DNA of 36,689 bases from Patescibacteria group bacterium (GCA_041649315.1 JBAZNJ010000003.1:1-36689), one strand, 5' to 3'; positions 1,452 to 28,418 are shown, counted from the first letter of the stretch. Made by a program: numbers and translations. Notes: generated from the sequence alone by a model not told the origin.

Positions 1452-2141
1452 ATGAAAAAATTCCTTTCTAAAGGCACTAAAAAGGGTTTTACCCTCTTAG
1501 AGCTTTTGATCGTAATAGCGATCATCGCTATTTTATCGGTCATCTTGGTTTTGGTCTTGGATCCGGCCGAAACTTTGAAAAAATCGCGGGATTCGCAGAG
1601 GTTGTCGGATTTAGCGACGATTAAGACGGCGCTCGGCCTATATATGACCAGCACGGTTAATCCGCTTATGGACGGCAACGACAATAGCGCTTGTAAGGGT
1701 AATGATTCAACCGATGCTAACTATATTGCCGGTGATGAGATTTTTTATAGTATCCCGAGTGAAAGTGCTATTACTGACGCGACTCTTGACGGAGGGGCTT
1801 TAGCAGTCGCTTCCCAGGTAGCCGAAGCTAATTTAGGTAATGTTGACGGGACGGGTTGGTTGCCGGTTAATTTAGCGGGTTTGCCGACCGGTTCCCCGAT
1901 TTCTAACATGCCGGTTGACCCGATTAATTCTATCACGTCTCTAGCGGCCGTTGATAATACGGATTTAGCCTATCGTTATGTTTGCAGCCAGAAAACTTTG
2001 CGTTATGAAATTGCCGCAGTTTTAGAGAGTTCCGCTTATACGGTTGATGACAATAAGATGACTAAGGACGGCGGTAATAATGCTAATTATTACGAAGTCG
2101 GAACCGATCTTAAATTGATCGGCACCGGTACTGATTTCTAA
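1452..2141 (+). CDS. Type IV pilin (probable major pilin) with class III signal peptide
   Basis: N-terminus MKKFLSKGTKKG|FTLLELLIVIAIIAILS has the canonical G(-1) F(+1) E(+5) prepilin motif. Strong SD, and a strong terminator follows the gene. Confidence 0.9.
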   Translation: MKKFLSKGTKKGFTLLELLIVIAIIAILSVILVLVLDPAETLKKSRDSQRLSDLATIKTALGLYMTSTVNPLMDGNDNSACKGNDSTDANYIAGDEIFYSIPSESAITDATLDGGALAVASQVAEANLGNVDGTGWLPVNLAGLPTGSPISNMPVDPINSITSLAAVDNTDLAYRYVCSQKTLRYEIAAVLESSAYTVDDNKMTKDGGNNANYYEVGTDLKLIGTGTDF

Positions 2142-2317: not shown

Positions 2318-2974
2318 ATGAACATTCTTAAATTTTTATTCGGTCCTTTTGCTGTTTGGGCGCCAACGGTTTTTATTGCTTTAGTCGTTCTGATTTTAAT
2401 TTGGCGGGAGCTAATTAAAGAAAAATGGTTTAAGAGAATAATAAAAAAAGATTTTTTTCTTTGGGAACGGATTTTTACGGATAAGCGTTTGATTGTCGGC
2501 GTTCTGGTCGCCGGTTTTATTTTTGCGGCCTTTTTAACGGTTTCTCAATATTATGTCTGGAGTTTATCAGCTATCGGCCGCTTTTTCTTGCCGCCGGCTC
2601 AGCCGACTTACTTTATTAATTATGCTTTTTTACATTTTTGGCTCGGCCGGCTTATCAGCTTATTTTTGTCCCTGCTTATTTTCGGAATTTTTTACTTAAT
2701 TCGCCATTATCGGCGCGCTTTAAGCCGGGCGGAGATAAATTTAGTTTTTTTAGCCTGTCTTTTGGCCGCTTGGCCGCGTCAGGTTTTTTTGATTCCATTA
2801 TTTTTTTTAGTGGCGGTTTTAGAACTAATAAGCCTGGTTTTAATTTATAGAAATAAAGGATTTAGAGAAACGAAAATTAAAATTTTCTGGCCCTTAATCT
2901 TAGCGACGCTTTTGACTTTGATTTTTGGCGGCTATTTAATCAGGATTTCCGGCTTAGCGTCTTTAATCGTGTAA
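2318..2974 (+). CDS. Polytopic membrane protein of unknown function in the T4P locus
   Basis: About 6 hydrophobic helices in 218 aa. Lies between the pilin gene and pilB. No recognisable catalytic motifs. Confidence 0.6.
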   Translation: MNILKFLFGPFAVWAPTVFIALVVLILIWRELIKEKWFKRIIKKDFFLWERIFTDKRLIVGVLVAGFIFAAFLTVSQYYVWSLSAIGRFFLPPAQPTYFINYAFLHFWLGRLISLFLSLLIFGIFYLIRHYRRALSRAEINLVFLACLLAAWPRQVFLIPLFFLVAVLELISLVLIYRNKGFRETKIKIFWPLILATLLTLIFGGYLIRISGLASLIV

Positions 2975-3073
2975 TTGCTCGGATTATGCTATAATTTAAG
3001 AAGTTATTATTGGGCCGGGGGCCGGTTTTTAAGTTTGGCGGCTTGGATTTAAAATAATTTGTTATTAAGGTTT

Positions 3074-4810
3074 ATGTATATAAAAGAAGAAAAATTAAAG
3101 GAAATTTTGTTAGAATCCGGCTTAGTGGAAGAGAAGGCTTTTGAATCAGCTAAGGCGGAATCAATCCGTTCCGGCCAGACAATTGCCAATGTCCTGATTG
3201 GCCGGGAAGAGATAACGGAAAATTATCTTTTAGAATTATTGGCGCCTTATTTTGATGTACCCGTAGTTGATTTGAGAAAGATGGTTATTCCGACGGAAAC
3301 TTTACATCTTTTACCCGAGGCTTTTATCAAGACCAAGGGCGCGGTTATTTTTGCCGTGGACGAAAAAGAAAAAATCGCGAAGGTGGCGATGACGAATCCT
3401 TTAGATCTGGATACGATTAATTTTATCCGGGCTAAATACGATTATTGGTTGGAAATTCATCTGGTTTCTCCTTCTAATCTTTCCCATGTTTTCAAACAGT
3501 TTAATAAAAAGATTGGGACGGATTTTAATAAAATAATTGAGGAGAGCATTAAGGAGTCATCTTCTTTGGCTGGGGAGACTGATTTGTCGCGGATGGCCGA
3601 GTCCGTGCCGATAGTGACGATAATTGATAGTATTTTAGAAAACGCCGTTGTTATGGGTGCCTCGGATATTCATTTTGAGCCACTATCTAAACGGCTTTTG
3701 GTTCGTTATCGCGTAGACGGAATTATGCAGGAAATTTTGACTTTGCCGAAAGACATTACTTCTATTTTAGTTGCCCGGGTTAAGATTTTATCCGGTATGC
3801 AAATTGACGAGCACCGCGTCCCGCAGGACGGTCGTTTTCATTTTAGCTTTGAAGAAACGAGCCGAATTGATGTTCGGGTTAACGTGATGCCGGTTTTAAA
3901 TGGCGAGAAAGTCGAGATGCGTTTATTAAAGAGTTCCTTGAAGCCGCTTTCCTTAGTTGATTTAGGCGTCCATGAGAAACTGGAAAAAGTTATTGTCGGG
4001 GAAATTAAAAAGCCGCATGGCATGTTGCTCGTTACCGGTCCGACCGGCCACGGGAAAACAACGACGCTTTATTCTATTCTTCATATCTTAAATACCCCGA
4101 AGGTTAATATTACGACGATTGAAGATCCAATCGAATATGAAGTTAATAATATTAATCAAACCCAAGTCAATGCCAAAGCCGGCGTTACTTTTGCGAATGG
4201 ACTACGTTCGCTTTTGCGCCAGAATCCGGACATCATCATGATTGGAGAAATTCGGGATAATGAAACTGCGGATATTGCGGTTCATTCCGCTTTAACCGGT
4301 CATTTAGTTTTATCCTCCTTACATACCAACGACGCCCCGTCGGCGATTCCGCGTTTGTTGGACATGGGAGTCGAGCCGTTTTTATTATCTTCAACGGTTA
4401 ATCTAGTAATTGCTCAGCGTTTGGTGCGTAAGGTCTGCTTGTCCTGTATTGAGTCCTATAAATTAACCAAAGTACAGGAAGAAACCATTGCCCGCCAATT
4501 GTCTTTATTTGATGCCGGCGCGAAAATCGGCGGTAAAAAGAAAAGACCTCATGCGATTCCGAAGGAAGTTTTCCGCGGCCGCGGCTGCAAGGTTTGCGAC
4601 GGAAGCGGCTTTTCCGGCCAAATCGGAATTTTTGAAGTTTTAGTAGTTGACGATAAAATCAGAGATTTAATTAACCAGTCAAAATCGGCCGGTGAAATCA
4701 GAAAAGAGGCGATTGCTGGCGGCATGCTTTCAATGTTCGAAGATGGTTTAGAAAAGGTCCAGCGCGGGGTTACGACAATCGAAGAAGTTCTTCGGGTGGT
4801 TAACGAGTAG
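3074..4810 (+). CDS. pilB: Type IV pilus assembly ATPase PilB (GspE family)
   Basis: GspE-type N-terminal domain. Walker A GPTGHGKTT, Walker B-like IIMIGEIRD, tetracysteine CLSC...CKVC motif. ATG at 3074 is preferred over the TTG at 3059 used by the track. Confidence 0.93.
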   Translation: MYIKEEKLKEILLESGLVEEKAFESAKAESIRSGQTIANVLIGREEITENYLLELLAPYFDVPVVDLRKMVIPTETLHLLPEAFIKTKGAVIFAVDEKEKIAKVAMTNPLDLDTINFIRAKYDYWLEIHLVSPSNLSHVFKQFNKKIGTDFNKIIEESIKESSSLAGETDLSRMAESVPIVTIIDSILENAVVMGASDIHFEPLSKRLLVRYRVDGIMQEILTLPKDITSILVARVKILSGMQIDEHRVPQDGRFHFSFEETSRIDVRVNVMPVLNGEKVEMRLLKSSLKPLSLVDLGVHEKLEKVIVGEIKKPHGMLLVTGPTGHGKTTTLYSILHILNTPKVNITTIEDPIEYEVNNINQTQVNAKAGVTFANGLRSLLRQNPDIIMIGEIRDNETADIAVHSALTGHLVLSSLHTNDAPSAIPRLLDMGVEPFLLSSTVNLVIAQRLVRKVCLSCIESYKLTKVQEETIARQLSLFDAGAKIGGKKKRPHAIPKEVFRGRGCKVCDGSGFSGQIGIFEVLVVDDKIRDLINQSKSAGEIRKEAIAGGMLSMFEDGLEKVQRGVTTIEEVLRVVNE

Positions 4811-4926: not shown

Positions 4927-6147
4927 ATGAGTTTATTTATTTATGAGGCCGCTGATAAAGAAGGGAAGGTAGTGGTTGGAGAAATCAATGCCTTGAACAG
5001 TGAAAGCGTGGCTTCGTCTTTGGCGCAGAAAAACTTAACGCCGGTGAAGATAGAACTTAAAACCGAGGCGGAAAGCCGTTCTTTTAAGTCCAAGAATATC
5101 TTGGAGCGGTTTACTACGCAGGATAAAATAGTTTTGATCCGTAATTTAGCGGCGACGGTCAAGGCCGGGCTTAGCTTGAATGAAGCTTTAGATATTTTAA
5201 TCGCTGATTCGTCCAAGAAAATAGTCGGGACTTTCTTGATTGACGCGCAATTCAATATCCAGAATGGCCAGCCATTATCAACGGCGTTTGAAAATAATCG
5301 GCGCTATTTTCCGCCGCTTTTTGTCGGCTTAATCAAGGCCGGCGAGGCCTCCGGGCGTTTAGATAATTCTCTTGAAGAATTGAGCCGCCATCTAACTAAG
5401 GAGCATGAATTAGTAAAAAAGGTAAAATCAGCCATGGCTTATCCCCTGATTTTGATTGGCGCCTCAATTGCGATTGTTACGCTCATGCTTATTTTTGTCC
5501 TGCCAAAACTTACAAAATCATTTGAGCAGAATAATTTAGAACTCCCCTTATTAACGCGAATTTTAATGAATTTTAGCAGCGCCCTAACTTATAGTTTGTT
5601 TTTAGATTTTGCGATAGTTGCCGCTTTGGTCGGATTTTTTCTTTATTTTCGGAAAACGCCGCGAGGCAAGAGAGTTATTAGTTATTTATTATTCCATACC
5701 CCGGTCGTGAAAAATTTAGTTAAAAAAATTATCTTGGTCCGTTTCGCCCGGACTTTAGGGACCCTGATCGACAGCGCCTTGCCGATTTCCGAATCACTTA
5801 ATTTAACTGCTAAAGCGGTCGGCAATGACCGTTATGAAGAGGCGATTGCTAGGGCCGATAAGGAAATCCGGAGCGGTATCCCGCTCTCGCAGGCCTTACG
5901 GAACGACCCGGAACTATTTCCTAAATTTTTAGTGAGCTTGGTCGGCGTTGGTGAAAAAACCGGAACTCTCGGGCAAGTTTTGAAAAATTTCGCGGATTTT
6001 TATGATAATGATGTTGATACGGCCTTGAAGGATTTAACGACTTTCCTGGAGCCAATCCTGCTATTATTTATGGGTTTAATGATCGGGACGATCGCCATGG
6101 CGATTCTGATGCCGATTTACCAGATGACCGGCAGTTTTAATTATTAA
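4927..6147 (+). CDS. pilC: Type IV pilus platform protein PilC (GspF family)
   Basis: Two GspF-type repeats (LIKAGEASGRLD and LVGVGEKTGTLG) and three TM segments. Sits directly downstream of pilB. Confidence 0.92.
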   Translation: MSLFIYEAADKEGKVVVGEINALNSESVASSLAQKNLTPVKIELKTEAESRSFKSKNILERFTTQDKIVLIRNLAATVKAGLSLNEALDILIADSSKKIVGTFLIDAQFNIQNGQPLSTAFENNRRYFPPLFVGLIKAGEASGRLDNSLEELSRHLTKEHELVKKVKSAMAYPLILIGASIAIVTLMLIFVLPKLTKSFEQNNLELPLLTRILMNFSSALTYSLFLDFAIVAALVGFFLYFRKTPRGKRVISYLLFHTPVVKNLVKKIILVRFARTLGTLIDSALPISESLNLTAKAVGNDRYEEAIARADKEIRSGIPLSQALRNDPELFPKFLVSLVGVGEKTGTLGQVLKNFADFYDNDVDTALKDLTTFLEPILLLFMGLMIGTIAMAILMPIYQMTGSFNY

Positions 6148-6198: not shown

Positions 6199-6690
6199 AT
6201 GAGGATACCTTCTGTTAATCGGAGTGGCTGGCAATCTAGTAACCGAAAGGCCTTTACTTTAGTAGAACTTCTCTTAGTGGTGGGTATTTTAGGAGTCATC
6301 GCTTCGGTCGTCCAGGGATTTTATGGCGATTTTGTCCAAGGAACGGTTTTAAGCGATAATTCTCAAAGCTTTATTTTTGATCTGCGTCAAGCTAGAAATA
6401 AAGCGATGGCCGGCGCGGCTGATCGTAATTGGGGGATTTTTATAGTTAACGATACAAATGATTATTATGAGATTTTTTCCAGTCCGACCGATTATTCTGA
6501 TTTAGAAAAGACGATTGAAGCGACGAATTATTTAAGAGATCAGGCCGGCTGGATTTTTCCGGTTGAAGGCGATAATCAGGAGATAGTTTTTAATAAGATC
6601 AGCGGCACAGCGTCTTCAACGGAAATTATTATCGGGATGAAGCGGTTATCGCGGACGATAAGGATTAATTCGCAGGGCTTAGTAGAATGA
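6199..6690 (+). CDS. Minor pilin, FimT/GspH-like
   Basis: RKA|FTLVELLLVVGILGVIA prepilin-like N-terminus (Ala at -1, Glu at +5). DLRQARNKAMAG resembles the GspH/FimT core. Confidence 0.75.
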   Translation: MRIPSVNRSGWQSSNRKAFTLVELLLVVGILGVIASVVQGFYGDFVQGTVLSDNSQSFIFDLRQARNKAMAGAADRNWGIFIVNDTNDYYEIFSSPTDYSDLEKTIEATNYLRDQAGWIFPVEGDNQEIVFNKISGTASSTEIIIGMKRLSRTIRINSQGLVE

Positions 6691-6712
6691 CTTGGAGCCA
6701 ATACTAATAATC

Positions 6713-7396
6713 ATGAGAAATAATCAGGTGCTAAAATTAAAGATAGAAGACGAGCCGTTTTTTAGCTTAGTTTTTAAGAAGGGATCTTTGCTTTTAGAGC
6801 TCTTGATCGTTATCGGCTTATTCGCGATTATCACTCCTTTAACCGCTCAGATTATCGTGAGCGGCCTTAATGTTAATAAGCATTCGTCCGAGCAGGCAAT
6901 CGTCTTTAATCTGGCCGAGGAAACGCTTAAGGCAGCGGAGAATATCAGTTTTGCTAGATGGCAGGATATTTATGATAAAGACAAAGGTGAGCCGAATTAT
7001 TATTATCCGGAAAAAGTTGCCGGTGCCTGGACGATTAAGGATGGGTCAGAAACGGTTGAGGTTAACGGTTTAGAATATTCCCGCTATTTTACGATTAACG
7101 ATGTTTGTCGCGATAATTCAACAAAAGAAATAATAAGCGGCGAGGGAATTCCTCCTTGCCCGAGCGGCGCGTTTCTTGACCCCTCGACGCAGGAAATAAG
7201 CGCGACAATCGCTTGGTCCGGCGGAACTACGACCAAGGAGATATATTTGACGCGTTGGCGCAACCGGATTTGTAAACAGAGCGATTGGGGGACGATTAAC
7301 GTCGGACCGAATGCTTGTCCGAGCAGTTTTTATGGCGAAGCGTTAGATATCGACGCGGCCTCGGTTCCCGGGAGTTTGATTTTGCTGGCGGAATAA
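6713..7396 (+). CDS. Minor pilin-like protein
   Basis: KKG|SLLLELLIVIGLFAII (G-1, E+5, Ser at +1). ATG at 6713 is preferred over the TTG at 6692. Confidence 0.7.
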   Translation: MRNNQVLKLKIEDEPFFSLVFKKGSLLLELLIVIGLFAIITPLTAQIIVSGLNVNKHSSEQAIVFNLAEETLKAAENISFARWQDIYDKDKGEPNYYYPEKVAGAWTIKDGSETVEVNGLEYSRYFTINDVCRDNSTKEIISGEGIPPCPSGAFLDPSTQEISATIAWSGGTTTKEIYLTRWRNRICKQSDWGTINVGPNACPSSFYGEALDIDAASVPGSLILLAE

Positions 7397-7463: not shown

Positions 7464-10400
7464 ATGAGAAAAGAAAATTTTAAATTTCTTATTAATTCGC
7501 ATAAAAATTTGTCTAAAATTTTTAAAAAATCAGCCGTTTTTATCTTAACCTTTTTTTTGGTTTTTTCTGCGGGAAGTTTTCCTTGCCCCCCGGATTTTTT
7601 AACGGGAGAAGGAACTAATAATTTGGGAATTAATAATCTTAAAATCAAGAAAGCGCGGGCGGCGGCCAGCGAAGATGGGATGATTTTTTATGGCATATCC
7701 GGAAATACGACGCCGCAAGCAAGGATTTATGATGCGGCCTTAGGCGCTTTTGATTCGCCGGCCTCGCCAACCGTTGCCGGTGGTCAGCCCGTTATTACGC
7801 GAATCAAAGCCTCGCCGAATAAAAATGAATATATCGCCGCCTATCAGGATACGTCCGGTAATTTACAAGTAATGTGTTATGACGGCACGGCGTGGACTAA
7901 TGAATGGTCGGTTGCGGTCGCGCCAGGCGGCACGCCGACGACCCAGCGTTTTGATATCGCCTATGAAACCGCGAGCGGCGATGTGGTCGTTGCTTATTCC
8001 CGGAATACGAACGCGACCAATGCCTTGGCTTACCGGACCAAATCTGGCGCAGACGGTTGCGGCACAGGAAATTGGTCAACGGCGGCTAACTTTCCAACGA
8101 CTTCAACGATTACGACCGGAACGGTTCAATGGGTTAAGGCGGCCGAGGACGGTCGGTCCGGCTCGAATTTGGGTGCCTGGATTTGGGCGGATTCTAATCG
8201 TGATTTAGGCGGAACAATCTGGTCGGGAACGGCTTTTGGAAATTTAAAAAATTTAGAAACCAATTTAGAGGTAGTATCAACCGGCCAAGACGTTGATAGC
8301 TTTGATTTAGCTTATGAGTCCTTATCCGGTGATTTAATGATTACTTGGGGTTCGGGCGGATCGAGTAGCACTAATGGCGCCTGGTATAATATGTGTACTG
8401 GCGGCACAGCCGCTTGTTCTTGGGGGGCGTCGCGTACGGCGTTTCCGACTTTAGCTGATGATGCGACTGTTTTAGATTTAAGTGCTGATCCGAATTCAGA
8501 TATGATGGCTTTTGCTTCTATTGGTAATGGAGGCAATGATTTACAGGCCGCTTATTGGAACGGCAGTTCCTGGACCGGCTATGCCCAGATTGATGCTTCC
8601 TGTGAAACTCCGGCGGCCGGGATGAAAACGGTCCAGACCGGATGGCTTACTAATGGAGCGACGGTTAGATGGTTTTTAATTTATGACGATGGATCCGGGA
8701 CCGGGCTTAGTTGGTTTGCGACTACACCGGGCGGCACTTTAACGACTAGCCAAGGCAAGCAGAGTGATTGGACGGCTTCGCCGTCGATAAATGATATCCG
8801 GGGCCGTTATGATTTAGATACTAACCCTTTTAATTTAAGTGAGGTAATTTTAACTTTATCTGATTCTACTAACTCTATTTTTGCCAAGCGCTTGGTCATG
8901 GATTCGGTTGGCAATCTAACCTGGTCTAATGTTGACGGCGCCGCTTCCTTAGGGACTAAATATAGCCATCCGCGACAGGGTTTTTCTTTTGCTTATCGGC
9001 GCTCGCTTCCAGCGGTTCTAGTTTTAAGCGCGTCGGCCGGCGCCAAAATTATGACCATAAATTCCGGCGCGGTCGGACAGTTCGTCCATGATTCGGCTTG
9101 CACGAGCGACGGAACCTGCGCCGCCTTTAAGATGATGGCCAGCGGCGGTTCGGTTACGATTACTTCGGTCAAAGTTTCAGAAATCGGCTCGGCGGCCGCC
9201 AATACGGATTTATCTAATCCGGTCTTATTTTATGATACGGATGATAATTATGCTAACGGCGTTGCCGGTACCTTTGGTTCGGCCGTTAATTTTGCCGCGG
9301 ATCAGACCGCGACTTTTACGAACGCCGGTTTAAGCATTCCGAGCGGCGCGACTTATTATTTTTATGTTGGCTTTGACGCTTTAAACGGAACGAATTATCC
9401 GGCCGGTGGCCAAGGGATTGATTTTAGCATAGTTTCATCTTCGGATATTATAACCAGTGGCGCGACATTAGTGAGTGGCGCGCCGGCAACTCTGGTTTTT
9501 GCCGGCTCAACTTGCGCTTCAACCGCCCATACTTGCGTTCGGCCGCAGATTACCAGCTATACGAACACGACCGAAACGACCTTGGATTACGCGGCGGATT
9601 GCACGGATTGCGGGGCCCGAATTGGTCCGGGTGCGCCTTATCGCCAGACGATTGTTATCAGCGGTTACGGCTTCGGGACTGATCCGGGTTTGGGGTCGCG
9701 GTCAACGAGCAATAATAAAGTAGAGGTTGCCGGAACAGGCACGAAAATAGTTAGCGATGACGGTACGGCGGATACTAATGTATCTGCTTGGAGCAACACG
9801 GCGATTACTATTCGGACGGATACGATGGTAGCCGGAGACGATGATGCTTCTTGGGGGGATAATTTTGGCGGTTTGGCCGCTTTGGGAATAACGGCCGGTG
9901 GCCAGAGTGCGGTGGCGGGATTAAATTTTTATCTTTTTCCGCAGGTTACTTCTTTGACCGTGCCGACACCGGTAGCCAATGCCGCGCGGGAATATGATGC
10001 GGGCGATACCGATGGCGTAATAACTTTAAACGGGACGCGTTTCGGTTCAAGTGCAACCGGCGGCTGGGTGAGGATTTTCGATTGCGATGAAACGACTTGC
10101 GCCAGTCCAAGCGGTTCAGCGGCAATAAATAGTTGGAGCAATACGGCGGTTGAGGTCCAAGTGCCGGCGGTTATCGCCGATGATGTTTATACCGGTAGCA
10201 TAAGCCTGCAGCAGGGCTCGCCGGCTTTTAATAAGAACCATGTTTATACTACGACCGGTTTTCGGATTTTGCCGCGGATAACAGAATTGATTTCCAGCAG
10301 CGGAATCGTCGGCGACGCGATTACGGTAAGTGGCAATCATTTTTGTCAAAATAATGGAATTTGTCCGATTGCTTTTGACGCTAACAATAAAGTAACTTTT

Positions 10401-11645
10401 AATTCCGGCATTGAGGCAAGCGTATTTACTAGTTGGTCGGATACGGCGATTGCGACAATCGTTCCGGATGGAACAGGGAGCGGCGATGTTTTTGTGACCG
10501 CGAACGCTTATCTTTCTAATGGAAAATATTTTTCAATTTTAAGTACTACGCCGGGTGAACCGACTAATTTAGATCAGTTTAGGGACGCACTTTTAACGGA
10601 AAGCATTACGGTTGGCGGGACGTCCAGCACTACGCCAATCTATCTGACTATGATTATGCAAGCTGGAGTGCCGGGCGGGACGCTTTATCCGCAAGTAGAA
10701 TATCAGCCGATCGGTACGCCTTTTGTTTGCGGTAGCGGTGCCTGTGCGACTGCTACTGAGGGCGGCGGCCAGGCCGGCCCCGGTCCGGTTAATTGTGCCC
10801 AGACCGCGAATAGCTGCGCGATTGAAATTTCCCCGGAAGATGATGTTTATCATTGGCAGGCGCGCATCCGCTATAATGTCGGCGGAATAGATTATTTTAG
10901 CAATTGGGCGCCTTTCGGAGGGAATGGGGAAGACGCGACTGATTTTAAGATTGATGCTAGCGCGCCTATGATTACTTTTCCGGGTGGCAATACTTGTTCC
11001 GAGGCCGTGACTTCGCTTTCAACTAACGGCGCGACCATCACCTGGTATTTGAATGAATTGGCTGATGGCCAGATCGAGTATAGTAAGAATAGCAGTTTGA
11101 CTGGCGCCGTTTTTTTCCCGATTCCATCCGGCGATCCGGCTTTTTCCCATGTTTATAATTTAAATAATTTAGATTCTAATACTACTTATTATTTCCGGGT
11201 GCTTTCCGCGGACGCCGAAGGGAATCAGGCGCTTAAGCCGGATAGCTCTCCGTATTGTTCGTTTACGACTTTGAATGTTGATCAGCCAGCGAAAACCGTA
11301 CGTTTCTATGTTGAGGGGCGCCCGGATGTTATCAGTGGCGGCGTGTCGACCAGTACGGCTTTTTCTGTCCATATCCCTGAGGAATCAATTTCTTTCAAAA
11401 GCTCTTTCTTAGAATTAACCGGCCTGTCTTTAGTGTCCGGTACCAATGAAATTTCTGTCCAGATAAACAGCCAGCCTTCATTAACTTATGATATCGCCGG
11501 ACCGAGCAATTTTAAGATTTTGTATAAGGTCGATCCGTCTAATATCAATATTTATCCGGCCGCCAACCTTTTAACCTTAAACCCCAGCCAGGATACTAAT
11601 ATCATTTCTGCTAAGTTTTTCACCACTTATTCTTTTGAACCGTAA
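7464..11645 (+). CDS. Large exported surface protein (beta-propeller-like repeats, IPT/TIG-like domains, FN3), candidate pilus-associated adhesin
   Basis: N-terminal signal anchor AVFILTFFLVFSAG. Recurring blade-like motif (IAAYQDTSGNLQV, IAYETASGDVVVAY, LAYESLSGDLMITW, DLQAAYWNGSSW). IPT-like VISGYGFG, ITLNGTRFG and ITVSGNHF. FN3-like TITWYLNELADGQIEYSKN...TTYYFRVLSADAEGN. Confidence 0.8.
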   Translation: MRKENFKFLINSHKNLSKIFKKSAVFILTFFLVFSAGSFPCPPDFLTGEGTNNLGINNLKIKKARAAASEDGMIFYGISGNTTPQARIYDAALGAFDSPASPTVAGGQPVITRIKASPNKNEYIAAYQDTSGNLQVMCYDGTAWTNEWSVAVAPGGTPTTQRFDIAYETASGDVVVAYSRNTNATNALAYRTKSGADGCGTGNWSTAANFPTTSTITTGTVQWVKAAEDGRSGSNLGAWIWADSNRDLGGTIWSGTAFGNLKNLETNLEVVSTGQDVDSFDLAYESLSGDLMITWGSGGSSSTNGAWYNMCTGGTAACSWGASRTAFPTLADDATVLDLSADPNSDMMAFASIGNGGNDLQAAYWNGSSWTGYAQIDASCETPAAGMKTVQTGWLTNGATVRWFLIYDDGSGTGLSWFATTPGGTLTTSQGKQSDWTASPSINDIRGRYDLDTNPFNLSEVILTLSDSTNSIFAKRLVMDSVGNLTWSNVDGAASLGTKYSHPRQGFSFAYRRSLPAVLVLSASAGAKIMTINSGAVGQFVHDSACTSDGTCAAFKMMASGGSVTITSVKVSEIGSAAANTDLSNPVLFYDTDDNYANGVAGTFGSAVNFAADQTATFTNAGLSIPSGATYYFYVGFDALNGTNYPAGGQGIDFSIVSSSDIITSGATLVSGAPATLVFAGSTCASTAHTCVRPQITSYTNTTETTLDYAADCTDCGARIGPGAPYRQTIVISGYGFGTDPGLGSRSTSNNKVEVAGTGTKIVSDDGTADTNVSAWSNTAITIRTDTMVAGDDDASWGDNFGGLAALGITAGGQSAVAGLNFYLFPQVTSLTVPTPVANAAREYDAGDTDGVITLNGTRFGSSATGGWVRIFDCDETTCASPSGSAAINSWSNTAVEVQVPAVIADDVYTGSISLQQGSPAFNKNHVYTTTGFRILPRITELISSSGIVGDAITVSGNHFCQNNGICPIAFDANNKVTFNSGIEASVFTSWSDTAIATIVPDGTGSGDVFVTANAYLSNGKYFSILSTTPGEPTNLDQFRDALLTESITVGGTSSTTPIYLTMIMQAGVPGGTLYPQVEYQPIGTPFVCGSGACATATEGGGQAGPGPVNCAQTANSCAIEISPEDDVYHWQARIRYNVGGIDYFSNWAPFGGNGEDATDFKIDASAPMITFPGGNTCSEAVTSLSTNGATITWYLNELADGQIEYSKNSSLTGAVFFPIPSGDPAFSHVYNLNNLDSNTTYYFRVLSADAEGNQALKPDSSPYCSFTTLNVDQPAKTVRFYVEGRPDVISGGVSTSTAFSVHIPEESISFKSSFLELTGLSLVSGTNEISVQINSQPSLTYDIAGPSNFKILYKVDPSNINIYPAANLLTLNPSQDTNIISAKFFTTYSFEP

Positions 11646-11735: not shown

Positions 11736-12437
11736 ATGGCTAAAAAAAGAAAAAATAAAAAAATTTATTTAATTGCCGGCGGCTTGGCCTTGGTAGCAAT
11801 TTTATTGTTGATGCTTTTTATTTTTAGGCCATTTTCTGATTCTAAAATAAATCGGCCGCAAAAAGGATTCAAAGGTTTAGTTATTGAAGATAATTTAGTA
11901 CTTCCGGATACGAGCCAAATTAGCGTTAATGACGGAGAATTTATTAGCCCGGGTGAATACGGCGTCAAGCTCCGGCCGCAGTCTGAACAAGAAGAAGTTT
12001 TTATTCCGCGCGCCGTTTTAACTTTAAAACAGGCCTATCAGTTAAGCGAAGCGGCGGCTCGAGAATGGTCGCCGGATGCCGCTTTGATTTTTATTAAATC
12101 ATTGGGCGCTTTAGGGCTAGACGGGAAAGCAAGCGCCTGGCAATTAGTTTTTGGTTCGGCCGGAAAAAAACAAGGCTATGAAATAATAATTTCTGTCGAT
12201 GAGATAATTAGCCGAGAAGAAATTGAAACGAGCGAGCCCGGCTTCGCTTTACCGGAGAATTGGTATGATTCCGGCGAAGCCATTAATTCTCTACGGAATT
12301 TAGTTCAATTTGATCGCGATTTTTTATCAGCAATCAGTTTTTATTATAGTCCGGCCGCCAAGCTTTGGGCCTATGGCCTCTCAACGACCCGGGAAGGCGA
12401 ACCGGCTCCGCGGACAACGGCGATGTGGGTTCGCTGA
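11736..12437 (+). CDS. Membrane-anchored hypothetical protein in the T4P operon
   Basis: KKRKNKK followed by the TM segment IYLIAGGLALVAILLLMLFIF. No recognisable domain. Confidence 0.6.
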   Translation: MAKKRKNKKIYLIAGGLALVAILLLMLFIFRPFSDSKINRPQKGFKGLVIEDNLVLPDTSQISVNDGEFISPGEYGVKLRPQSEQEEVFIPRAVLTLKQAYQLSEAAAREWSPDAALIFIKSLGALGLDGKASAWQLVFGSAGKKQGYEIIISVDEIISREEIETSEPGFALPENWYDSGEAINSLRNLVQFDRDFLSAISFYYSPAAKLWAYGLSTTREGEPAPRTTAMWVR

Positions 12438-12568: not shown

Positions 12569-13852
12569 ATGAAAAAAATAAACTATAAAAAATTTTTATT
12601 TTTTGTTGGCGCATTGGCGTTTTTATTTTTTTGTTCGCCAAAGATTACTTTAGCCGCCGAGCAAATCAAGACCACCGATTATTTTGTCGGCGCTTATCCT
12701 AATCAAGTAAGCGGCGCGGTTGATTTACCCTTTGCTCTTTATATCGGCGATAATCTTGAGGGCGTGAGCGACCCAATCAAATCCGCTTATTTTACGGTGA
12801 GCGGCGTTTATACCGGTTCCGGCTCTTTGTCGCTAAGCTTAAATTCCGACGCCAGCACGACTAAGGCCTTTTTTTTGCCGGCCGTGGCATCTCCGACTAA
12901 CTTTGAAATTATTTATCAGGATGAAACCGAAATTATTAATCCGACTAGCGCCGGCACTTATAATTATTCTTTGGATGTCGCACCGGCCGGCGTTACACTT
13001 TCCGGCTTAGGGGCGAAATTGGAAGCGACTTATCAATTCGTGCCGACGGCTTGTCCGGATGGCGTTCCGGCCAATGAAAAAATAAAGTCCACCGATTATT
13101 TTGTCGGTGCTTATCCTAACCAGGTAAGCGGCGCGGTTGATTTGCCCTTTGCTCTTTATATCGGCGATAATCTTGAGGGCGTGAGCGACCCAATCAAATC
13201 CGCTTATTTTACGGTGAGCGGCGTTTATACCGGCTCCGGCTCTTTGTCTCTAGGTTTAAACGACAACGCCTCTACAACCAAAACTTTTCTCCTTCCGGCC
13301 GTTGTGTCTCCGACTAATTTTGAGATTATTTATCAGGATGATATGGGAACCATTAGTCCGCTTAGCGCTGGTACTTATAATTATTCTTTAGATATCGCTC
13401 CGGCCGGTGTTACGCTTTCCGGCTTGGGGGCGAAGTTGACGGTTTCCCATCGTTATAAGCCGCCGATTTGCGGTTTAAGCTATCCTCCTTATGGCGATTT
13501 AATTTCCACGATTTTTGATTCAACCGGTTCCGCGGACGGGCCGGCATATAATTCAATTATGTGGCGCGGCGCTTTAGGTGGCGAAGAATTTGATATCGGG
13601 GAGGTTCTATTCCAGATTGCCGCCGCCGATGACACGATCGGACCTTGGGATTATATCGGACCGAATTGTATTGGCGGGCCTTATGATTGGTTTGAATTGC
13701 CGCCGGAGACCGCAGCGGAAATCGGGTGCTATTCGCTTTTGAATAATAAAAGATATTTCCGCTATAAAGCCCGTCTTTGCTCCACTGATTGCTCAGCTTC
13801 CGGGCCGACTACGCCGCAGGTGGACGAAGTTATTATTAATTGGAGTCCTTAG
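12569..13852 (+). CDS. Secreted protein with an internal 139-aa tandem duplication
   Basis: Sec signal peptide with probable cleavage at TLA|AEQ. Two copies of IK(T/S)TDYFVGAYPNQVSGAVDLPFALYIGDNLEGVSDPIKSAYFTVSGVYTGSGSLSL... and a Cys-containing C-terminal domain. Confidence 0.8.
   Translation: MKKINYKKFLFFVGALAFLFFCSPKITLAAEQIKTTDYFVGAYPNQVSGAVDLPFALYIGDNLEGVSDPIKSAYFTVSGVYTGSGSLSLSLNSDASTTKAFFLPAVASPTNFEIIYQDETEIINPTSAGTYNYSLDVAPAGVTLSGLGAKLEATYQFVPTACPDGVPANEKIKSTDYFVGAYPNQVSGAVDLPFALYIGDNLEGVSDPIKSAYFTVSGVYTGSGSLSLGLNDNASTTKTFLLPAVVSPTNFEIIYQDDMGTISPLSAGTYNYSLDIAPAGVTLSGLGAKLTVSHRYKPPICGLSYPPYGDLISTIFDSTGSADGPAYNSIMWRGALGGEEFDIGEVLFQIAAADDTIGPWDYIGPNCIGGPYDWFELPPETAAEIGCYSLLNNKRYFRYKARLCSTDCSASGPTTPQVDEVIINWSP
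12664..13497 (+). repeat. Two-copy in-frame tandem duplication, period 417 nt
   Basis: 12664-13080 aligns with 13081-13497. An 89-nt block is identical (12728-12816 = 13145-13233), and the distal parts are clearly more diverged. Confidence 0.9.
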
Positions 13853-13856
13853 GTTT

Positions 13857-14396
13857 ATGATTTTAAGAAAGAATAATAAAAAAAGAAAATTCAAGACCGG
13901 GTTTACTTTAATGGAGCTTTTGATTTATATGGCGGTTTTGTCGATCATGAGCGTTGTTGTGTCCGATTCTTTTTTAACCTTGAATAAAGGCCGGGATAAT
14001 ATTGAAATAAAAAGCGAATTAAATTCTAATTTGTCTTTTGTTTTAGAGAAAGTTAAATACGATATCAGCGTGGCTGAGGGCCTTAATTTTCCAGCCGTGG
14101 CCGGAGAGAGCGCAGCCGCGCTTGATTTGAGTATTGGCGGAGAAAATATTTATTATTCCCTTGATCAAGGCCGTTTATTGCGGCAGGCCGGTGCGGCCGA
14201 GCCGGAATTTATCAGTCCGGAAAACTTAAACATCAGTAATTTAAGCTTCACCCGGCTGGAAAACGTTAATCCATTTTTAGGAAGCAAGAAAGTGAGCTTG
14301 GAGATTAATATTTCCGGCGCCTATAACAGCGGCGATCCGGGCCGGCAATATGAACAAGATCGGAAAATAATGGTTAATCTTAACGCGGATTTTTAA
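13857..14396 (+). CDS. Minor pilin / pseudopilin (PilW/GspJ-like)
   Basis: KTG|FTLMELLIYMAVLSIMS is a canonical prepilin motif. Starts 4 nt after the preceding stop codon. Confidence 0.8.
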   Translation: MILRKNNKKRKFKTGFTLMELLIYMAVLSIMSVVVSDSFLTLNKGRDNIEIKSELNSNLSFVLEKVKYDISVAEGLNFPAVAGESAAALDLSIGGENIYYSLDQGRLLRQAGAAEPEFISPENLNISNLSFTRLENVNPFLGSKKVSLEINISGAYNSGDPGRQYEQDRKIMVNLNADF

Positions 14397-14498
14397 TAGG
14401 ATTATGGCCAGGGTTTTCCCGATCATTTAGCGGCCGATTTCTAATGATTCAGAAACTATCATTAAACTATTTTATAGAAAATTTTTAAGGTGTTTATT

Positions 14499-14915
14499 AT
14501 GAAAATATTTAAGAAAGAACAAGCGGGTTTAGCCTCTTTACCAACTGTTTTAGTTTTAATCGCCTTGATAATTTCTGTCGGCGTTTTTGTCTCCGCGGTG
14601 AGCGTTTCTGATAATTTATCAGTGAGCGGCGCGGGCGCTTCCGACCGGGCTTTGAATTACGCCCGTTCCGGCGCGCGCGATGCTTTAGAAAGAATTGCCC
14701 GTAATAAAGATTATGTCGGAGATTACGACATCGCGGCGGTTCCAGACGGTTGTTTAGAGCCATTTTCCGGATGCGTTTCAGTGAGTGTCGCGGCCGGAAA
14801 TCCGAAAATGATCAGCGCGGCCGGACGGGCCGGTGATTTTATAAGAAAAATCCAGGTGGCGGCCACGCTGGATGCGGATGGTTTAATTCTTGATTATGAT
14901 TGGACGGAGCAGTAA
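14499..14915 (+). CDS. PilX-like pilus assembly protein
   Basis: N-terminal hydrophobic helix GLASLPTVLVLIALIISVGVFV without Glu+5, as in PilX/GspK-type proteins. ATG at 14499 is preferred over the GTG at 14490. Confidence 0.6.
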   Translation: MKIFKKEQAGLASLPTVLVLIALIISVGVFVSAVSVSDNLSVSGAGASDRALNYARSGARDALERIARNKDYVGDYDIAAVPDGCLEPFSGCVSVSVAAGNPKMISAAGRAGDFIRKIQVAATLDADGLILDYDWTEQ

Positions 14916-15010: not shown

Positions 15011-15736
15011 TTATTTATTACCAATAACAATCTGCAAATCATAACGAATATCATTCCCCAGGGTCTCAACGATAAAGTCATACTTTTCATCGACTAATCT
15101 GCTTATCTCCAAGAGTTCGCTGGCGTTCCGGTCTAAGCCGGATTTTATTTTTATCAGCGTTGCTTCTTCGCTTTTCGCTTGGTTGCCAATGTTTTCTACC
15201 GGGTAGCCGGCTTGGTCCAGGATTTTTTTCATTTCTCCAGCTAAACCGGCGCGGTTCGTTGAATTAAGTACGGAGATTTTAAGGTTTAAAGGCGCCTTAG
15301 CTTTAATCGATGCTGAATCATCCTGAACGGGCGCCGAATCATTGGCCGCGGGAATATTCTCCCCTTGTTCGTTGTTAGTTCCGAGTTCGTCCCCCGTTTC
15401 TAATCGGGTTGTCTCATCTTCATTAACGATTATGCCTAACTCATCCTCCTCCGATTTAATTTCCTTGTTTTCACTAATTAGCTCATCAGAAACGGGTTTA
15501 GTTAAATTTAATTTTTTCGCTAATAATAAATAATTATCAAGATCAAGTTGTAGTATTTTTTCGGGAGCGACCTGTTTTTCAGCCGGTTCTAAGGCCGAAC
15601 TAAGCGCTTGGTTTATAAATTTAATCATTAAGATAAAGGCAATAATTATCCCGATAAGATAAAGAGCAAAAATTAAAGGGTAGGTTAATTTTTCTATCTT
15701 TAAAGTTTTTGTTTTTTTTATTTTATTCTTGAGCAT
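15011..15736 (-). CDS. Membrane-anchored LytR_C-domain protein
   Basis: TM segment YPLIFALYLIGIIIAFILMI, an acidic linker, and a C-terminal LKISVLNSTNRAGLAGEMKKILDQAGYPVENIGN typical of the LytR_C fold. Overlaps the upstream pilO-like gene by 14 nt. Confidence 0.65.
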   Translation of the reverse strand: MLKNKIKKTKTLKIEKLTYPLIFALYLIGIIIAFILMIKFINQALSSALEPAEKQVAPEKILQLDLDNYLLLAKKLNLTKPVSDELISENKEIKSEEDELGIIVNEDETTRLETGDELGTNNEQGENIPAANDSAPVQDDSASIKAKAPLNLKISVLNSTNRAGLAGEMKKILDQAGYPVENIGNQAKSEEATLIKIKSGLDRNASELLEISRLVDEKYDFIVETLGNDIRYDLQIVIGNK

Positions 15737-16277
15737 AAAGCCGTCCGCTAAAGTTTATCGTTGAATTATTATTCCAGCCATTAGTGCCATTTATGTTTAT
15801 CGTCTGGATCGAGGAAAAATAAGTCAGTTTTTCGAGGTCTTTAAGATAAGCGACTAGGATATCAATATTAGCGTCCCTTAAGGATGCGCTGAAGTTTACT
15901 GAAGACAGGGAAATCGGTCCAACCGGCGAAACAAGAGGCGCAGGCTGGCTGAAGTTAAGCTCGGATTTAAGGTTGTATTTCTTAGCCAAACTGTCCAAGG
16001 CCTCGACAAAAGGCAGGACATTATAGACCGAAGGTAGGGCGGCGTAAATCTTAGCTTCATAATCAGAATCAATTTTTTTGAAATCGGCCTGGATTTGGCG
16101 GGTGGTTTCTTCCCGATTACGCAGAAGATAATTTATTTCTTTCTTTTCTCGGGTAGCTAAATTCAGTTGTTTGATTTTTTTAACCAAAAAATAATCAAGC
16201 GTTCCGGCAACGCTAATAATTACTAGAGCGACTAGTATTTTAATGCTTAGTTTTAAAATGAATTTATTCTTTAGCAT
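15723..16277 (-). CDS. PilO-like pilus assembly protein
   Basis: Single N-terminal TM, a coiled-coil segment and an alpha/beta C-terminus. Directly downstream of the pilM-N fusion. ATG at 16277 is preferred, because the track's TTG at 16316 lies inside a conserved intercistronic motif. Confidence 0.55.
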   Translation of the reverse strand: MLKNKFILKLSIKILVALVIISVAGTLDYFLVKKIKQLNLATREKKEINYLLRNREETTRQIQADFKKIDSDYEAKIYAALPSVYNVLPFVEALDSLAKKYNLKSELNFSQPAPLVSPVGPISLSSVNFSASLRDANIDILVAYLKDLEKLTYFSSIQTININGTNGWNNNSTINFSGRLYAQE

Positions 16278-16307
16278 TTTGATTTGGTTTTGATAAGACC
16301 ATTGCTG

Positions 16308-16344
16308 AATACTCAAAAGAGCATTTGGCGAAAGCCCAATTATT
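16308..16344 (-). repeat. Intercistronic RNA-motif copy 1
   Basis: Sense strand reads TAATTGGGCTTTCGCCAAATGCTCTTTTGAGTATT. It is 33/37 identical to 24751..24787 in the same orientation and starts at the pilM-N stop codon. Confidence 0.7.
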
Positions 16345-17776
16345 CAATATTTTTTTCTAAGATTTCCGGATCGGTAATTTTAAAAGTTAAAGAAAAAGGA
16401 ATATCCGCTTTCTTCCCGAGGTTGTCTAGGGGCAGAGTCACTTCCGTAAAAAGCTCAGAGCCGGCGAAAGAATCTCTTAGGGAATTAATCCGATCCCGGT
16501 CAACCGCGATTCCGGATAAAGAAAAAGTCGCTTCAGCGCCCGGCAAGGATAAGGTATTTACGGTAATGCCGGAAACAATTCGGTTTTTTATCTCTTCAAC
16601 AATCGGGCTCCAGGCAGTTTCCTGACGGGCTAAGGCATTGCTTTGGCCGACCAAACGGTTAAATGATTCCGCTCTAGTTTCAATTAAGATAGCATTATCT
16701 GCACCCGGCAAAGCGGACATGAAAGCGATCTCCTCGTTAAAATTATTTTGCATCATAACGAGAATAAACCAGGTTGCGCTTAGGGCCGCGCTAAAAAATA
16801 AAGATAGGGCGAAGCTGGCGCCGATTAAGAAGCCGGCCGTGGCGTTGGCCTTAGCTTGGCGAAAAGCCTCTTCTGTCCCGACTTTCATTAAGCTAATCAG
16901 TTCGTCGTCTTTCCGCGGGACTAAGCCGCGCCAAGCCGCGCCCAAAGACGTTAAGGACTCAGGTTTTATTTTTATTTTTTTACCTAATTCCTCCCGGAAT
17001 TCCGGATTAAGCGGTTTTAAGGGCAGGTCTTTTATTTCTTTAGAGTCAAAGGATCCGATAAGAACCAGACCGGAAATTTTCCGATCAAACCATTCCTGAT
17101 GTTTTATTATCTTATCAATTTCTTGTTTTAAGCCGGATTTTATTTTTTCGTTTGGCAAGGACTGGGAAAAAATGAGCAGATTATTTTTTATAACAGAAAA
17201 AGTCGTAGTTGAATGGTCTTTTTTTAAGATTAAGGATGTTTCGCCCGGTTTTTGCTTAAGAGCCCGGGCTAAGCTTAAAGAATGGCTTTCAATAGCGACG
17301 ATTTTCAGACCGGCCTTTTTTAGAGTGTTTAAAAAATTTTCTATCAAAGAGATCGGCGCGCTGGCCAATAAGAAGTTTTTATTAGCCTTATCTGCCTCCG
17401 CTGTTTCCCAATCGCAATAGATTTCCGAGCGTTGGCGCGGCAATTGGAAATCGGCAATTAATTTCATTGATTCACTTATTTTCTCATCCGGCATTACATT
17501 CGGGAAAGAATAGATTTTAGAGAAGATTTTGTCGGCGGGTAGGGAAACAACTAAATATTTCAGCCGGCGGCCGGAAAGCTTTTTTATTTTCGCGATAAAT
17601 TCACTCTCTTTTTTTATTAAACCATCATTTATTACATCGCTCGAAAGAGTCTCTTCAAGGAGCGTTTTAATTTCCAAAGACGATTTACCTCTTTTTAATA
17701 AGGTAAGCCGGATGTGGGAATCAGATATTTCCAAGCCGCCAATCGGCTCTTCATTGATGAGGCGCAGTAGATTCAT
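16340..17776 (-). CDS. pilM: PilM-PilN fusion protein (actin-like ATPase fold, TM, PilN-like domain)
   Basis: N-terminus IGGLEISDSHIRLTLL and about 300 aa of PilM-like sequence. Then the TM segment GFLIGASFALSLFFSAALSATWFILVMM and a PilN-size periplasmic domain. Confidence 0.8.
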   Translation of the reverse strand: MNLLRLINEEPIGGLEISDSHIRLTLLKRGKSSLEIKTLLEETLSSDVINDGLIKKESEFIAKIKKLSGRRLKYLVVSLPADKIFSKIYSFPNVMPDEKISESMKLIADFQLPRQRSEIYCDWETAEADKANKNFLLASAPISLIENFLNTLKKAGLKIVAIESHSLSLARALKQKPGETSLILKKDHSTTTFSVIKNNLLIFSQSLPNEKIKSGLKQEIDKIIKHQEWFDRKISGLVLIGSFDSKEIKDLPLKPLNPEFREELGKKIKIKPESLTSLGAAWRGLVPRKDDELISLMKVGTEEAFRQAKANATAGFLIGASFALSLFFSAALSATWFILVMMQNNFNEEIAFMSALPGADNAILIETRAESFNRLVGQSNALARQETAWSPIVEEIKNRIVSGITVNTLSLPGAEATFSLSGIAVDRDRINSLRDSFAGSELFTEVTLPLDNLGKKADIPFSLTFKITDPEILEKNIE

Positions 17777-27954: not shown

Positions 27955-28028
27955 GATTGCCCGTGATAGGACTATCGTTAGATATTCAAGAGAACATTTA
28001 ACGTTAGCCCCTTATATGTTTAAAGATT

Positions 28029-28418
28029 TTAAGATCGTGCCGCTGCTTTTTGGATTTCTGCCATCAAACTGTCGAGTTCAAAAGGTTTTTCTAATATTCC
28101 TTTAACGACGCCGGTAGCGTTGAATTGTTCTAACATTTCCCGCAATTCTTTAGAGGCAATCGGCAGGGCGGAAACGAGCAGGACTGGGATGCCCTTTAAT
28201 TTTTCGTCCTGGCTCATGGCTTTACAGACATCAAGCCCGCTGACGACCGGCATCATAATATCCAGGATAATCAAGTCGTAGCCGGAATCAGCAGCCATTT
28301 TTTCCAAACCCTCTTTTCCGCCGTAAGCGACTTCAATTTCCGCCGGCTCGCGGCTGGAAATCAAGGCCTGGAGAGTGGTGACGGTGTTGGTGTCATTGTC
28401 AATGATTAAGATTTTCAT
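28029..28418 (-). CDS. Stand-alone response-regulator receiver protein (CheY-like)
   Basis: MKILIIDND...DLIILDIMMP...LLVSAL are receiver signatures. At 129 aa there is no output domain. Confidence 0.88.
   Translation of the reverse strand: MKILIIDNDTNTVTTLQALISSREPAEIEVAYGGKEGLEKMAADSGYDLIILDIMMPVVSGLDVCKAMSQDEKLKGIPVLLVSALPIASKELREMLEQFNATGVVKGILEKPFELDSLMAEIQKAAARS

Follow-up and report, generated by a model that had tools for sequence, protein, structure and literature searches.

A stretch of 36,689 nucleotides (nt) from a Patescibacteria group bacterium (GCA_041649315.1 JBAZNJ010000003.1:1-36689), analysed here over its full length and referred to as the window, carries on sequence grounds a complete type IV pilus locus. 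Within this locus, on the plus strand at 7464..11645, lies a gene for a 1393-amino-acid (aa) non-pilin that is predicted to be Sec-exported and in which a beta-propeller is followed by a stalk of immunoglobulin (Ig)-like domains (hereafter the propeller/stalk protein); this description rests on the open reading frame (ORF), 89 homologues and structure models. We consider it probable, with some reserve, that this protein is the large non-pilin subunit of the type IV pilus tip (priming) complex in a Parcubacteria-type bacterium of the candidate phyla radiation (CPR). Comparative sequence analysis strongly indicates an association with the pilus and makes a function as tip adhesin plausible. Life attached to other microbes is the presumed habit of the CPR (Patescibacteria), whose most conserved surface organelle is the type IV pilus; to our knowledge, nothing is known of the composition of the CPR pilus tip outside one Saccharibacteria strain. 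New here is a putative non-pilin pilus-tip protein that belongs to a propeller family without a Pfam match and that has an apparent natural fusion/fission partner.

The pilus tip is the most likely location of the propeller/stalk protein because its propeller is fused elsewhere to the minor pilin that is encoded here just upstream. This pilin, a 234-aa minor prepilin with the signal KKG|SLLLE (6692..7396, plus strand), shows both homology and collinearity with the pilin half of a group of pilin::propeller fusions, proteins of ~600 aa or ~770-850 aa that open with a canonical prepilin signal (e.g., KGFLLVEILL) and carry the propeller at their C-terminus. The upstream gene matches the pilin half of the fusions by BLASTP (E 2e-7 for P0056 and 3e-6 for P0074) and by phmmer (E down to 9e-12), and a MAFFT alignment with ten of the ~600-aa fusions is collinear over the entire pilin part as far as a conserved YL[TS][ND]W[RK]. 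Past this motif, the propeller (G-x-h-h-h-Y-G ... TTP[KR]YR-Y) follows directly in the fusions; in the window, the upstream gene stops after a 40-residue tail, and the propeller is supplied by the propeller/stalk protein behind its own signal/anchor. The fusions end 0-4 residues beyond a conserved strand, PFSFAFW[RQ], the equivalent of which in the propeller/stalk protein is FSFAY (aa 507-511). Collinearity up to the YL[TS][ND]W[RK] junction indicates that the window carries a clean split version, in which the break falls exactly between pilin and propeller, with 6692-7396 as the pilin half and the propeller/stalk protein as the propeller half to which a stalk is joined. By the usual Rosetta-stone logic, such a pair predicts that the 234-aa pilin and the propeller/stalk protein interact.

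Genomic context supports the same association. Relatives were collected by a word-indexed search, which listed 89 proteins, and a census with one genome per species gave 74 loci, among which 69 non-redundant propeller loci were classified after ORF calling, with the pilus proteins of the window and a regular expression for prepilins as queries. The census lineages are mostly CPR (Wolfe-, Taylor-, Berkel-, Collier-, Shapiro-, Roizman-, Woese- and Daviesbacteria, records labelled Saccharibacteria, and others), together with Elusimicrobia, one Acidimicrobiales metagenome-assembled genome (MAG) and remote matches in DPANN archaea; the loci nearest to that of the window belong to Parcubacteria-group MAGs (Taylorbacteria and Wolfebacteria). 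At 34 of the 69 loci, a prepilin has the propeller as its C-terminal domain, and the gene order is invariably PilB - PilC - GspH-like pilin - [pilin::propeller] - pilin - PilX-like - major pilin. A further 14 of the 69 lie in a pilus context, comprising six of the split type like the window, five in the fusion slot that were missed by the regular expression or by the choice of ORF start, and three that are 5'-truncated. PilB is encoded at most 3.5 kb from the propeller in 38 of the 69.

Orthologues with the full architecture of the propeller/stalk protein (32-72% identity) were found at ten independent loci (L001/L008, L002, L009, L010, L013, L022 and L082-L085), and all ten keep the pilus gene order of the window, including the genes for a 233-aa and a 427-aa protein that lie downstream. 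Where flanks are long enough, these full-length orthologues are always accompanied by PilB, PilC and other minor pilins. When an alignment of the ~770-aa pilin::propeller proteins was used as query, 169 relatives were recovered, none of which is a characterised protein; where they bear a source name, it is "hypothetical protein", "PilV" or "PulG". Neither the propeller family nor its split form was found described in the full-text literature searched. Of the extra modules on CPR minor pilins in the set examined here, this propeller family is the most frequent.

The propeller module occupies aa 67-515 (7662..9008, plus strand) and probably comprises four two-blade super-repeats of ~110 aa with a closing strand FSFAY; it contains invariant Trp, Glu and Asp residues. 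AlphaFold2 models built on homologue alignments cover aa 41-700 and aa 681-1393; the first (predicted local distance difference test [pLDDT] 88, predicted template modelling score 0.85) is an all-beta propeller at aa ~70-513, for which pLDDT exceeds 90, followed by a beta-sandwich. Aligned with itself by hhalign, the propeller profile gives off-diagonal matches at offsets of ~105, 220 and 331 residues (E 5e-22, 6e-8 and 3e-3), which, taken with the DSSP strand groups, point to four two-blade super-repeats and thus probably to eight blades closed by a composite blade of N- and C-terminal strands. The best Foldseek matches in the PDB are the lectins BP39L, PHL and PLL, with GH145, PL25, integrin alpha and LGI1 also present (E 3e-9 to 1e-7, template modelling score 0.59-0.65 normalised to our protein, 12-14% identity). 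These lectin and enzyme matches reflect generic propeller similarity. The PLL and PHL lectins are seven-bladed with sugar sites between the blades, and the blade number of the propeller described here appears to differ from theirs.

No Pfam family matches the propeller, even at E<=10. The whole ~445-aa module, from the GDGxxxYG start to the FSFAYWR end, is homologous in 88 of the 89 listed proteins (E 1e-50 to 0, 33-72% identity), with the remaining one, P0089, matching at 5.6e-17. Mapped on the query, the 89 relatives outline aa ~71-513 as a discrete module that is 40-60% identical across very different architectures, and an exhaustive HMMER search with the propeller alone returned 732 cluster representatives at E<=1e-3, of which 473 reach E<=1e-10. 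The module is found behind a signal/anchor with varied C-terminal parts (Ig-like domains, LamG with DUF2341, and others), in tandem, inside giant proteins and at the C-terminus of prepilins; among 211 sequences, it is N-terminal, following a signal/anchor, in 135, fused to a prepilin in 35 and internal in 38. The propeller is a mobile module that forms a discrete family without a Pfam match. Giant proteins with the same propeller include P0091 (6719 aa), P0094 (7926 aa) and P0138, in which the query is matched in up to 11-15 stretches, suggesting repeated copies, and in Elusimicrobia proteins of about 4500 aa (e.g., L036, L038, L045, L054 and L075) the propeller is embedded and pilus genes were not seen nearby. 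Remote tblastn matches to the propeller (23-27% identity) occur in three archaeal contigs from DPANN and Methanosarcinales MAGs (L077, L079 and L080); only the ORF of L079 was confirmed by phmmer (E 1e-13), and a pilus context was not seen.

The gene itself begins with ATG and is the longest ORF of the window. The N-terminal segment (aa 1-66, 7464..7661, plus strand; pLDDT <50) consists of a basic stretch, a single hydrophobic helix at aa ~23-39 and a linker that ends in an A-x-A (ARA, aa 64-66) just ahead of the propeller. In nearly all orthologues, an A-x-A stands 3-6 residues ahead of the GDG with which the propeller starts. On inspection of the N-terminal sequence, no prepilin motif (G/[FS]xxxE) was present, and we rejected the idea of a cryptic prepilin because the pattern of Gly/Ala-1 to Glu+5 is lacking and the helix is short. 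With this hydrophobic helix, 22 Cys and a Gly/Ala/Ser/Thr content of 42%, the protein has the features of an exported protein. Gly/Ala/Ser/Thr content has been reported as 38-47% in pilins versus 24-32% in intracellular proteins, and our value falls within the range given for pilins and other shed surface proteins (PMC11623550).

The same composition explains why the gene is richer in GC than its surroundings, as a model-generated first-pass annotation of the window had noticed by eye. Its GC is 0.487 versus about 0.40-0.45 in most neighbours (0.484 in the small gene for a 141-aa protein downstream), and the excess sits at the second codon position (GC 0.525) owing to the abundance of Gly, Ala, Ser and Thr. 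GC at the third codon position (GC3) is 0.468, equal to the 0.44-0.49 of the neighbours, for which reason a foreign origin was rejected as its source; the GC excess is compositional and says nothing on origin.

Beyond the propeller, seven beta-sandwich domains extend over ~880 residues, among them three IPT-like domains, one FN3-like domain and a distinct domain at the C-terminus. The model of aa 681-1393 (pLDDT 80) is a string of beta-sandwiches whose Foldseek matches are multi-Ig/FN3 ectodomains. A first beta-sandwich region at aa 516-690 (9009..9533, plus strand), with strands in model residues 515-637 (pLDDT ~90), is common to P0018, P0019 and P0028. It is followed by the three IPT/TIG-like beta-sandwiches at aa 691-1025 (9534..10538, plus strand), which have core motifs at aa 730, 853 and 953 and multi-Ig matches by Foldseek. 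The third (aa 926-1016) matches the IPT/TIG chain 8co1 (E 0.0017), the only match of the protein among PDB sequences; the protein itself gives no TIG match in Pfam, and PF01833 is precomputed in the orthologues P0004 and P0014. A Cys-rich beta-sandwich at aa 1026-1170 (10539..10973, plus strand; pLDDT ~90) appears to be a second mobile module, with local matches in P0047, P0049, P0067, P0072 and P0083. The FN3-like domain at aa 1171-1272 (10974..11279, plus strand), modelled as a beta-sandwich of Pur_ac_phosph_N type, accounts for the only Pfam signal of the protein, sub-threshold matches within aa 1182-1269 to Pur_ac_phosph_N (E 1e-5, 26.4 bits against a cut-off of 30) and fn3 (E 0.031); PF16656 is precomputed for most orthologues, and NCBIfam gave no match. 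The C-terminal beta-sandwich, aa 1273-1393 with the stop codon (11280..11645, plus strand), ends in SA[KD]hhhTYxYTP, an extreme C-terminus conserved in ten orthologues, and shares homology with each of the two tandem repeats in the 427-aa protein encoded downstream (E 4e-7 and 1e-4).

Much of the architecture had been proposed in the first-pass annotation and holds up under these analyses: a 1393-aa ORF with an N-terminal signal anchor, at least three IPT/TIG-like modules, of which three were found, and a distinct C-terminal domain were all recovered, and the proposed FN3 module is backed by weak but mutually consistent signals. Its suggestion of structure prediction followed by Foldseek returned a propeller and then a chain of Ig-like domains. 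The at least five blade-like repeats that it counted need correction, as the strict motif occurs only twice (FDIAYETASGD at aa 163 and FDLAYESLSGD at aa 280), although the propeller that they were taken to imply is upheld by the model and the self-alignment.

In the mechanism that we propose, the propeller/stalk protein would be exported by Sec, probably with cleavage at the A-x-A directly before the propeller (ARA|AAS). The propeller would then dock by non-covalent contacts on the 234-aa minor pilin's globular head, the same pairing being covalent elsewhere. Four minor pilins would prime assembly on PilC/PilB/PilMN, end at the distal tip and carry the protein along. Minor pilins of type IVa pili prime assembly and stay at the tip, according to two studies (PMC7541494; PMC13533445), which is why distal display would follow. 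The first of these also provides, in PilY1, a precedent for a non-pilin tip protein that docks on minor pilins (PMC7541494), PilC/PilY1, MshQ and CpaL are given as such precedents in the second (PMC13533445), and modular pilins offer a precedent for tip adhesins (PMC8179133). At the tip, the lectin-like propeller and the long Ig-like stalk would contact the surface of a host or partner cell, most plausibly a glycan, in a function like that of PilY1/PilC or MshQ that was built independently. The 427-aa protein, which shares the terminal domain of the stalk, and the co-inherited 233-aa protein are on these grounds both candidate partners.

Several observations weigh against a pilus-tip adhesin. 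The spacing from the hydrophobic helix to the A-x-A ranges over 0-60 aa among orthologues and is 26 in the window; this is atypical for signal peptidase I, so the protein may keep its membrane anchor and not be able to depart with the pilus. Conservation among orthologues is highest in the propeller (mean identity 52% versus 36-46% for the other domains), as one would expect of a docking or structural part no less than of a host-specific adhesin. Because the fold matches are generic, glycan binding amounts to guesswork. Nor is the module as such specific to pili. A check of co-occurrence with minor pilins across genomes, as advised in the first-pass annotation, bears out the link for the full-length orthologues (10/10) but not for the propeller as such: in 21 of the 69 loci, mostly for Elusimicrobia proteins of 2000-4500 aa and a few from CPR, pilus genes were not seen within the flank, and P0041 likewise carries the module without pilus genes nearby.

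These points bear most directly on a different arrangement, in which the protein would be a fibril or adhesin anchored in the membrane at the cell surface, regulated together with the pilus without belonging to it, with an uncleaved signal anchor and with propeller and stalk projecting through the wall or S-layer. The single N-terminal transmembrane helix fits such a fibril, as do the long, partly conserved linker before the propeller in several orthologues and the signal/anchor-then-propeller layout, which 135 of the 211 family members share with varied C-termini, some of them outside pilus loci. We nevertheless think it unlikely, given that the propeller is covalently part of a prepilin in 34 of the 69 loci, that the split falls exactly at the pilin-propeller junction, that an A-x-A is conserved directly before the propeller and that full-length orthologues are found with minor pilin genes in 10 of 10 loci.

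We give less credence to a pilus biogenesis or priming factor, or an envelope-crossing accessory, that acts with the 233-aa and 427-aa proteins and has no ligand role, pilus assembly being licensed or stabilised as by the C-terminal strand of PilY1/PilC. High conservation of the propeller and of the extreme C-terminus (SA[KD]hhhTYxYTP) would be in keeping with it, and the terminal strand of the fusions, PFSFAFW[RQ], recalls the terminal beta-strand addition of PilC/PilY1, GspK and CpaL (PMC13533445). However, the C-terminal motif also closes both internal repeats of the 427-aa protein and is therefore a domain feature rather than a free plug, and ~880 residues of Ig-like stalk are hard to account for by priming alone; moreover, priming is compatible with adhesion, both being functions of PilY1. 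That the protein is a secreted carbohydrate-active enzyme or lectin, either just a neighbour of the pilus genes or the substrate of a type II secretion system-like use of the machinery, seems to us highly improbable. The attraction of this idea lies in the Foldseek matches, which besides lectins include GH145, PL25 ulvan lyase and sialidase, but these are generic, no enzyme family is matched by sequence in Pfam or NCBIfam, and the pilin fusions and strict synteny argue for a structural association.

PilY1/PilC (PF05567 / IPR008707) has a C-terminal modified seven-bladed propeller with a calcium-binding loop and, at its extreme C-terminus, a beta-strand by which the sheet of a PilK/PilX-type minor pilin is completed; it is needed for piliation and sits at the tip. 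The proposed pilus-tip subunit resembles it as a large non-pilin with a Sec-type N-terminus, a gene within the minor-pilin block and a propeller joined to other modules, and in its proposed docking on minor pilins and display at the tip. One conserved propeller with variable modules also follows the "carrier plus module" logic described for PilY1 (PMC8179133). It differs from PilY1 in that its propeller is N-terminal and apparently eight-bladed, whereas that of PilY1 is C-terminal and seven-bladed, and in its inferred partner, the second (PilV-slot) minor pilin rather than one of PilX/PilK type (PMC13533445). Homology to PilY1 was rejected: PF05567 is not matched by the whole protein (E<=0.1) or by the propeller (E<=10), phmmer and a profile search of PDB sequences yielded no PilY1 chain, and none is among the best 50 Foldseek matches. 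The first-pass annotation had likewise seen no sequence resemblance to PilY1, and its view of a non-pilin propeller/Ig protein that fills the genomic niche of PilY1 by analogy gains support from the propeller model, the conserved synteny at ten of ten loci and the prepilin fusions at 34 of 69. It had also placed the gene between FimT/GspH-like and PilW/PilX-like pilin genes, which is right as to the minor-pilin block; PilW/PilX-like genes do not flank it directly, as two non-pilin genes come first on the downstream side. Going further, one may tentatively suppose, at a confidence well below that for a tip subunit as such, that Parcubacteria-type CPR independently invented a PilY1-like tip adhesin by detaching an eight-bladed propeller from its minor-pilin carrier, adding an Ig-like stalk of ~880 residues and recruiting the 233-aa and 427-aa secreted proteins into a multi-protein tip fibre for host recognition.

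The best experimental precedent for a propeller as CPR pilus adhesin, and one by which the idea of a propeller at the CPR pilus tip has already been published, is PilX2 of TM7x, a Saccharibacteria minor pilin with a C-terminal heptabladed propeller resembling PLL-type lectins, deletion of which halves host binding (PMC11623550 / PMC12206443). We recovered a pilX2 copy from oral metagenomes with the primer sequence of PMC11623550; its locus has the gene order pilZ2-pilV2-pilW2-pilX2-pilA2, and the PilX2-like ORF (L088:2936-4663) is of RCC1 type (PF00415, E 8e-45). The propeller of the window gave no RCC1 match in Pfam (E<=10), and its identity with the PilX2 propeller was rejected (BLASTP E 0.53, hhalign probability 0.4%). 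PilX2 is, in addition, pilin-like and encoded in the last minor-pilin slot, unlike the propeller/stalk protein, a non-pilin. As the two propellers are unrelated, CPR pili have recruited at least two unrelated propellers. The oral contigs (L088 1188-5170) reproduce TM7x type IV pilus locus three (FimT-like, PilV2, PilW2, RCC1-propeller PilX2 and PilA2), and PilX2 of L088 starts with MMRKKDGYSLVLIVL, a PilX-like N-terminus without Glu5.

CofB and CpaL/TadG are pilin-like tip proteins. With these and the modular pilins of S. sanguinis (PilB and PilC; PMC8179133), the proposed tip subunit has in common the presentation of a functional module at the tip by a pilin carrier. It differs as a detached module, not a modular pilin, in which the class III signal peptide and pilin helix are absent. 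The fused homologues, some of which carry the Joint Genome Institute label "Tfp pilus assembly protein PilV", do fit the "modular pilin" concept (PMC8179133), and because the module has no database signature, censuses of modular pilins based on signatures would miss them. They share with the window a homologous propeller (40-60% identity) and flanking minor pilins, PilB and PilC, and differ as prepilins of ~600 or 770 aa that stop directly behind the propeller; the propeller/stalk protein is without the pilin half and has in addition the ~880-aa stalk and two extra genes. Between pilin and propeller, the ~770-850-aa fusions (alignment consensus; P0056 aa 328-406) contain two ~85-aa repeats (VINHG...DFAPYKVG...TFSGDC...CTITNEEK). 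These weakly match the SpaA-like prealbumin fold (PF19403, E 1.7e-4) and recall the stalk domains of Gram-positive pilins. MshQ of the Vibrio MSHA pilus, a ~1200-residue non-pilin encoded next to minor pilins, is a predicted member of the tip complex for which docking via a C-terminal strand onto a PilK homologue has been proposed (PMC13533445). The likeness to it is that of a large non-pilin encoded near minor pilins, and homology to MshQ is not expected.

A module that is either fused to a pilin or encoded separately is a natural experiment that predicts to which minor pilin a non-pilin tip protein binds; for PilY1/PilC, this question has been taken up only recently. The natural fusion/fission partner makes the docking question directly testable. 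Should a PilY1-like protein indeed have been invented independently, the pair would locate precisely the interface at which a non-pilin tip protein docks on a minor pilin, and docking could use a PilV-slot pilin rather than the PilX/PilK partner known for PilY1. The propeller with its stalk also offers a defined target for work on host recognition by uncultivated Parcubacteria.

The remaining genes of the pilus locus are arranged around the propeller/stalk gene as follows. Upstream of the pilus genes lies a histidine kinase gene (52-1182), and the locus proper opens on the plus strand with the major pilin (1452..2141). A 218-aa polytopic membrane protein (2318..2974, plus strand), which has no Pfam or NCBIfam match and does not look like a prepilin peptidase, is conserved in all split-type loci (E 1e-5 to 3e-31), its gene standing between that of the major pilin and pilB. 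The PilB-like ATPase (3059..4810, plus strand) and the PilC-like platform protein (4927..6147, plus strand) are named from their sequences and from Pfam T2SSE and T2SSF, respectively, in syntenic orthologues (L002, L082-L085). A 163-aa GspH/FimT-like minor prepilin (6199..6690, plus strand; N_methyl E 5e-6, TIGR01708 weak) precedes the 234-aa pilin gene and is kept directly upstream of the fused or split pair.

Downstream of the propeller/stalk gene, the 233-aa protein (11736..12437, plus strand) is predicted to be membrane-anchored; its homologues adjoin the propeller/stalk orthologue in L002, L009, L010, L013 and L082-L085 and are absent from fused-type loci. The 427-aa protein, predicted to be secreted (12569..13852, plus strand), comprises two tandem copies of the C-terminal domain of the propeller/stalk protein and then a Cys-rich C-terminal part, the two copies being evident in the gene as an internal direct repeat of 300 nt (86% identity, spacing 417 nt). 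It is found only in split-type loci, with orthologues in all complete ones (E 1e-67 to 1e-155). The block is completed on the plus strand by a 179-aa minor prepilin with the signal GFTLMELLIY (13857..14396), which is kept directly after the propeller gene in fused-type loci, and by a conserved partner of 141 aa (14490..14915) with a hydrophobic N-terminus without Glu5, for which a PilX/GspK-like family is suggested in spite of there being no profile match. A minus-strand trio follows at 15011..17776, namely a LytR_C protein, a 197-aa ORF and a PilM-PilN fusion (16340-17776), with Pfam matches at 2.4e-8 for LytR_C, 6.6e-16 for PilM_2 and 7.5e-4 for PilN; the same trio is present in L001 and L083.

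Orthologous loci show some insertions and regulatory genes of their own. A gene of the Beta-lactamase2 family stands between the 234-aa-type pilin gene and the propeller/stalk orthologue in L002 (9057-9977) and L085 (9030-9974), and an 888-aa PD40/Tricorn-like gene directly follows the orthologue in L002. In the upstream regions of L002, L083 and L085, the pilus genes are preceded by histidine kinases and by single-domain response regulators in arrays of three to four; besides its upstream kinase, the window has a kinase/regulator pair at 26380-28418. A low-GC island at 22099-24130 (GC 0.26 versus about 0.42, GC3 0.21-0.24) contains two ORFs, the second of which matches the Tsp45I type II restriction enzyme family (E 1.6e-7), and is probably an acquired restriction-modification cassette.

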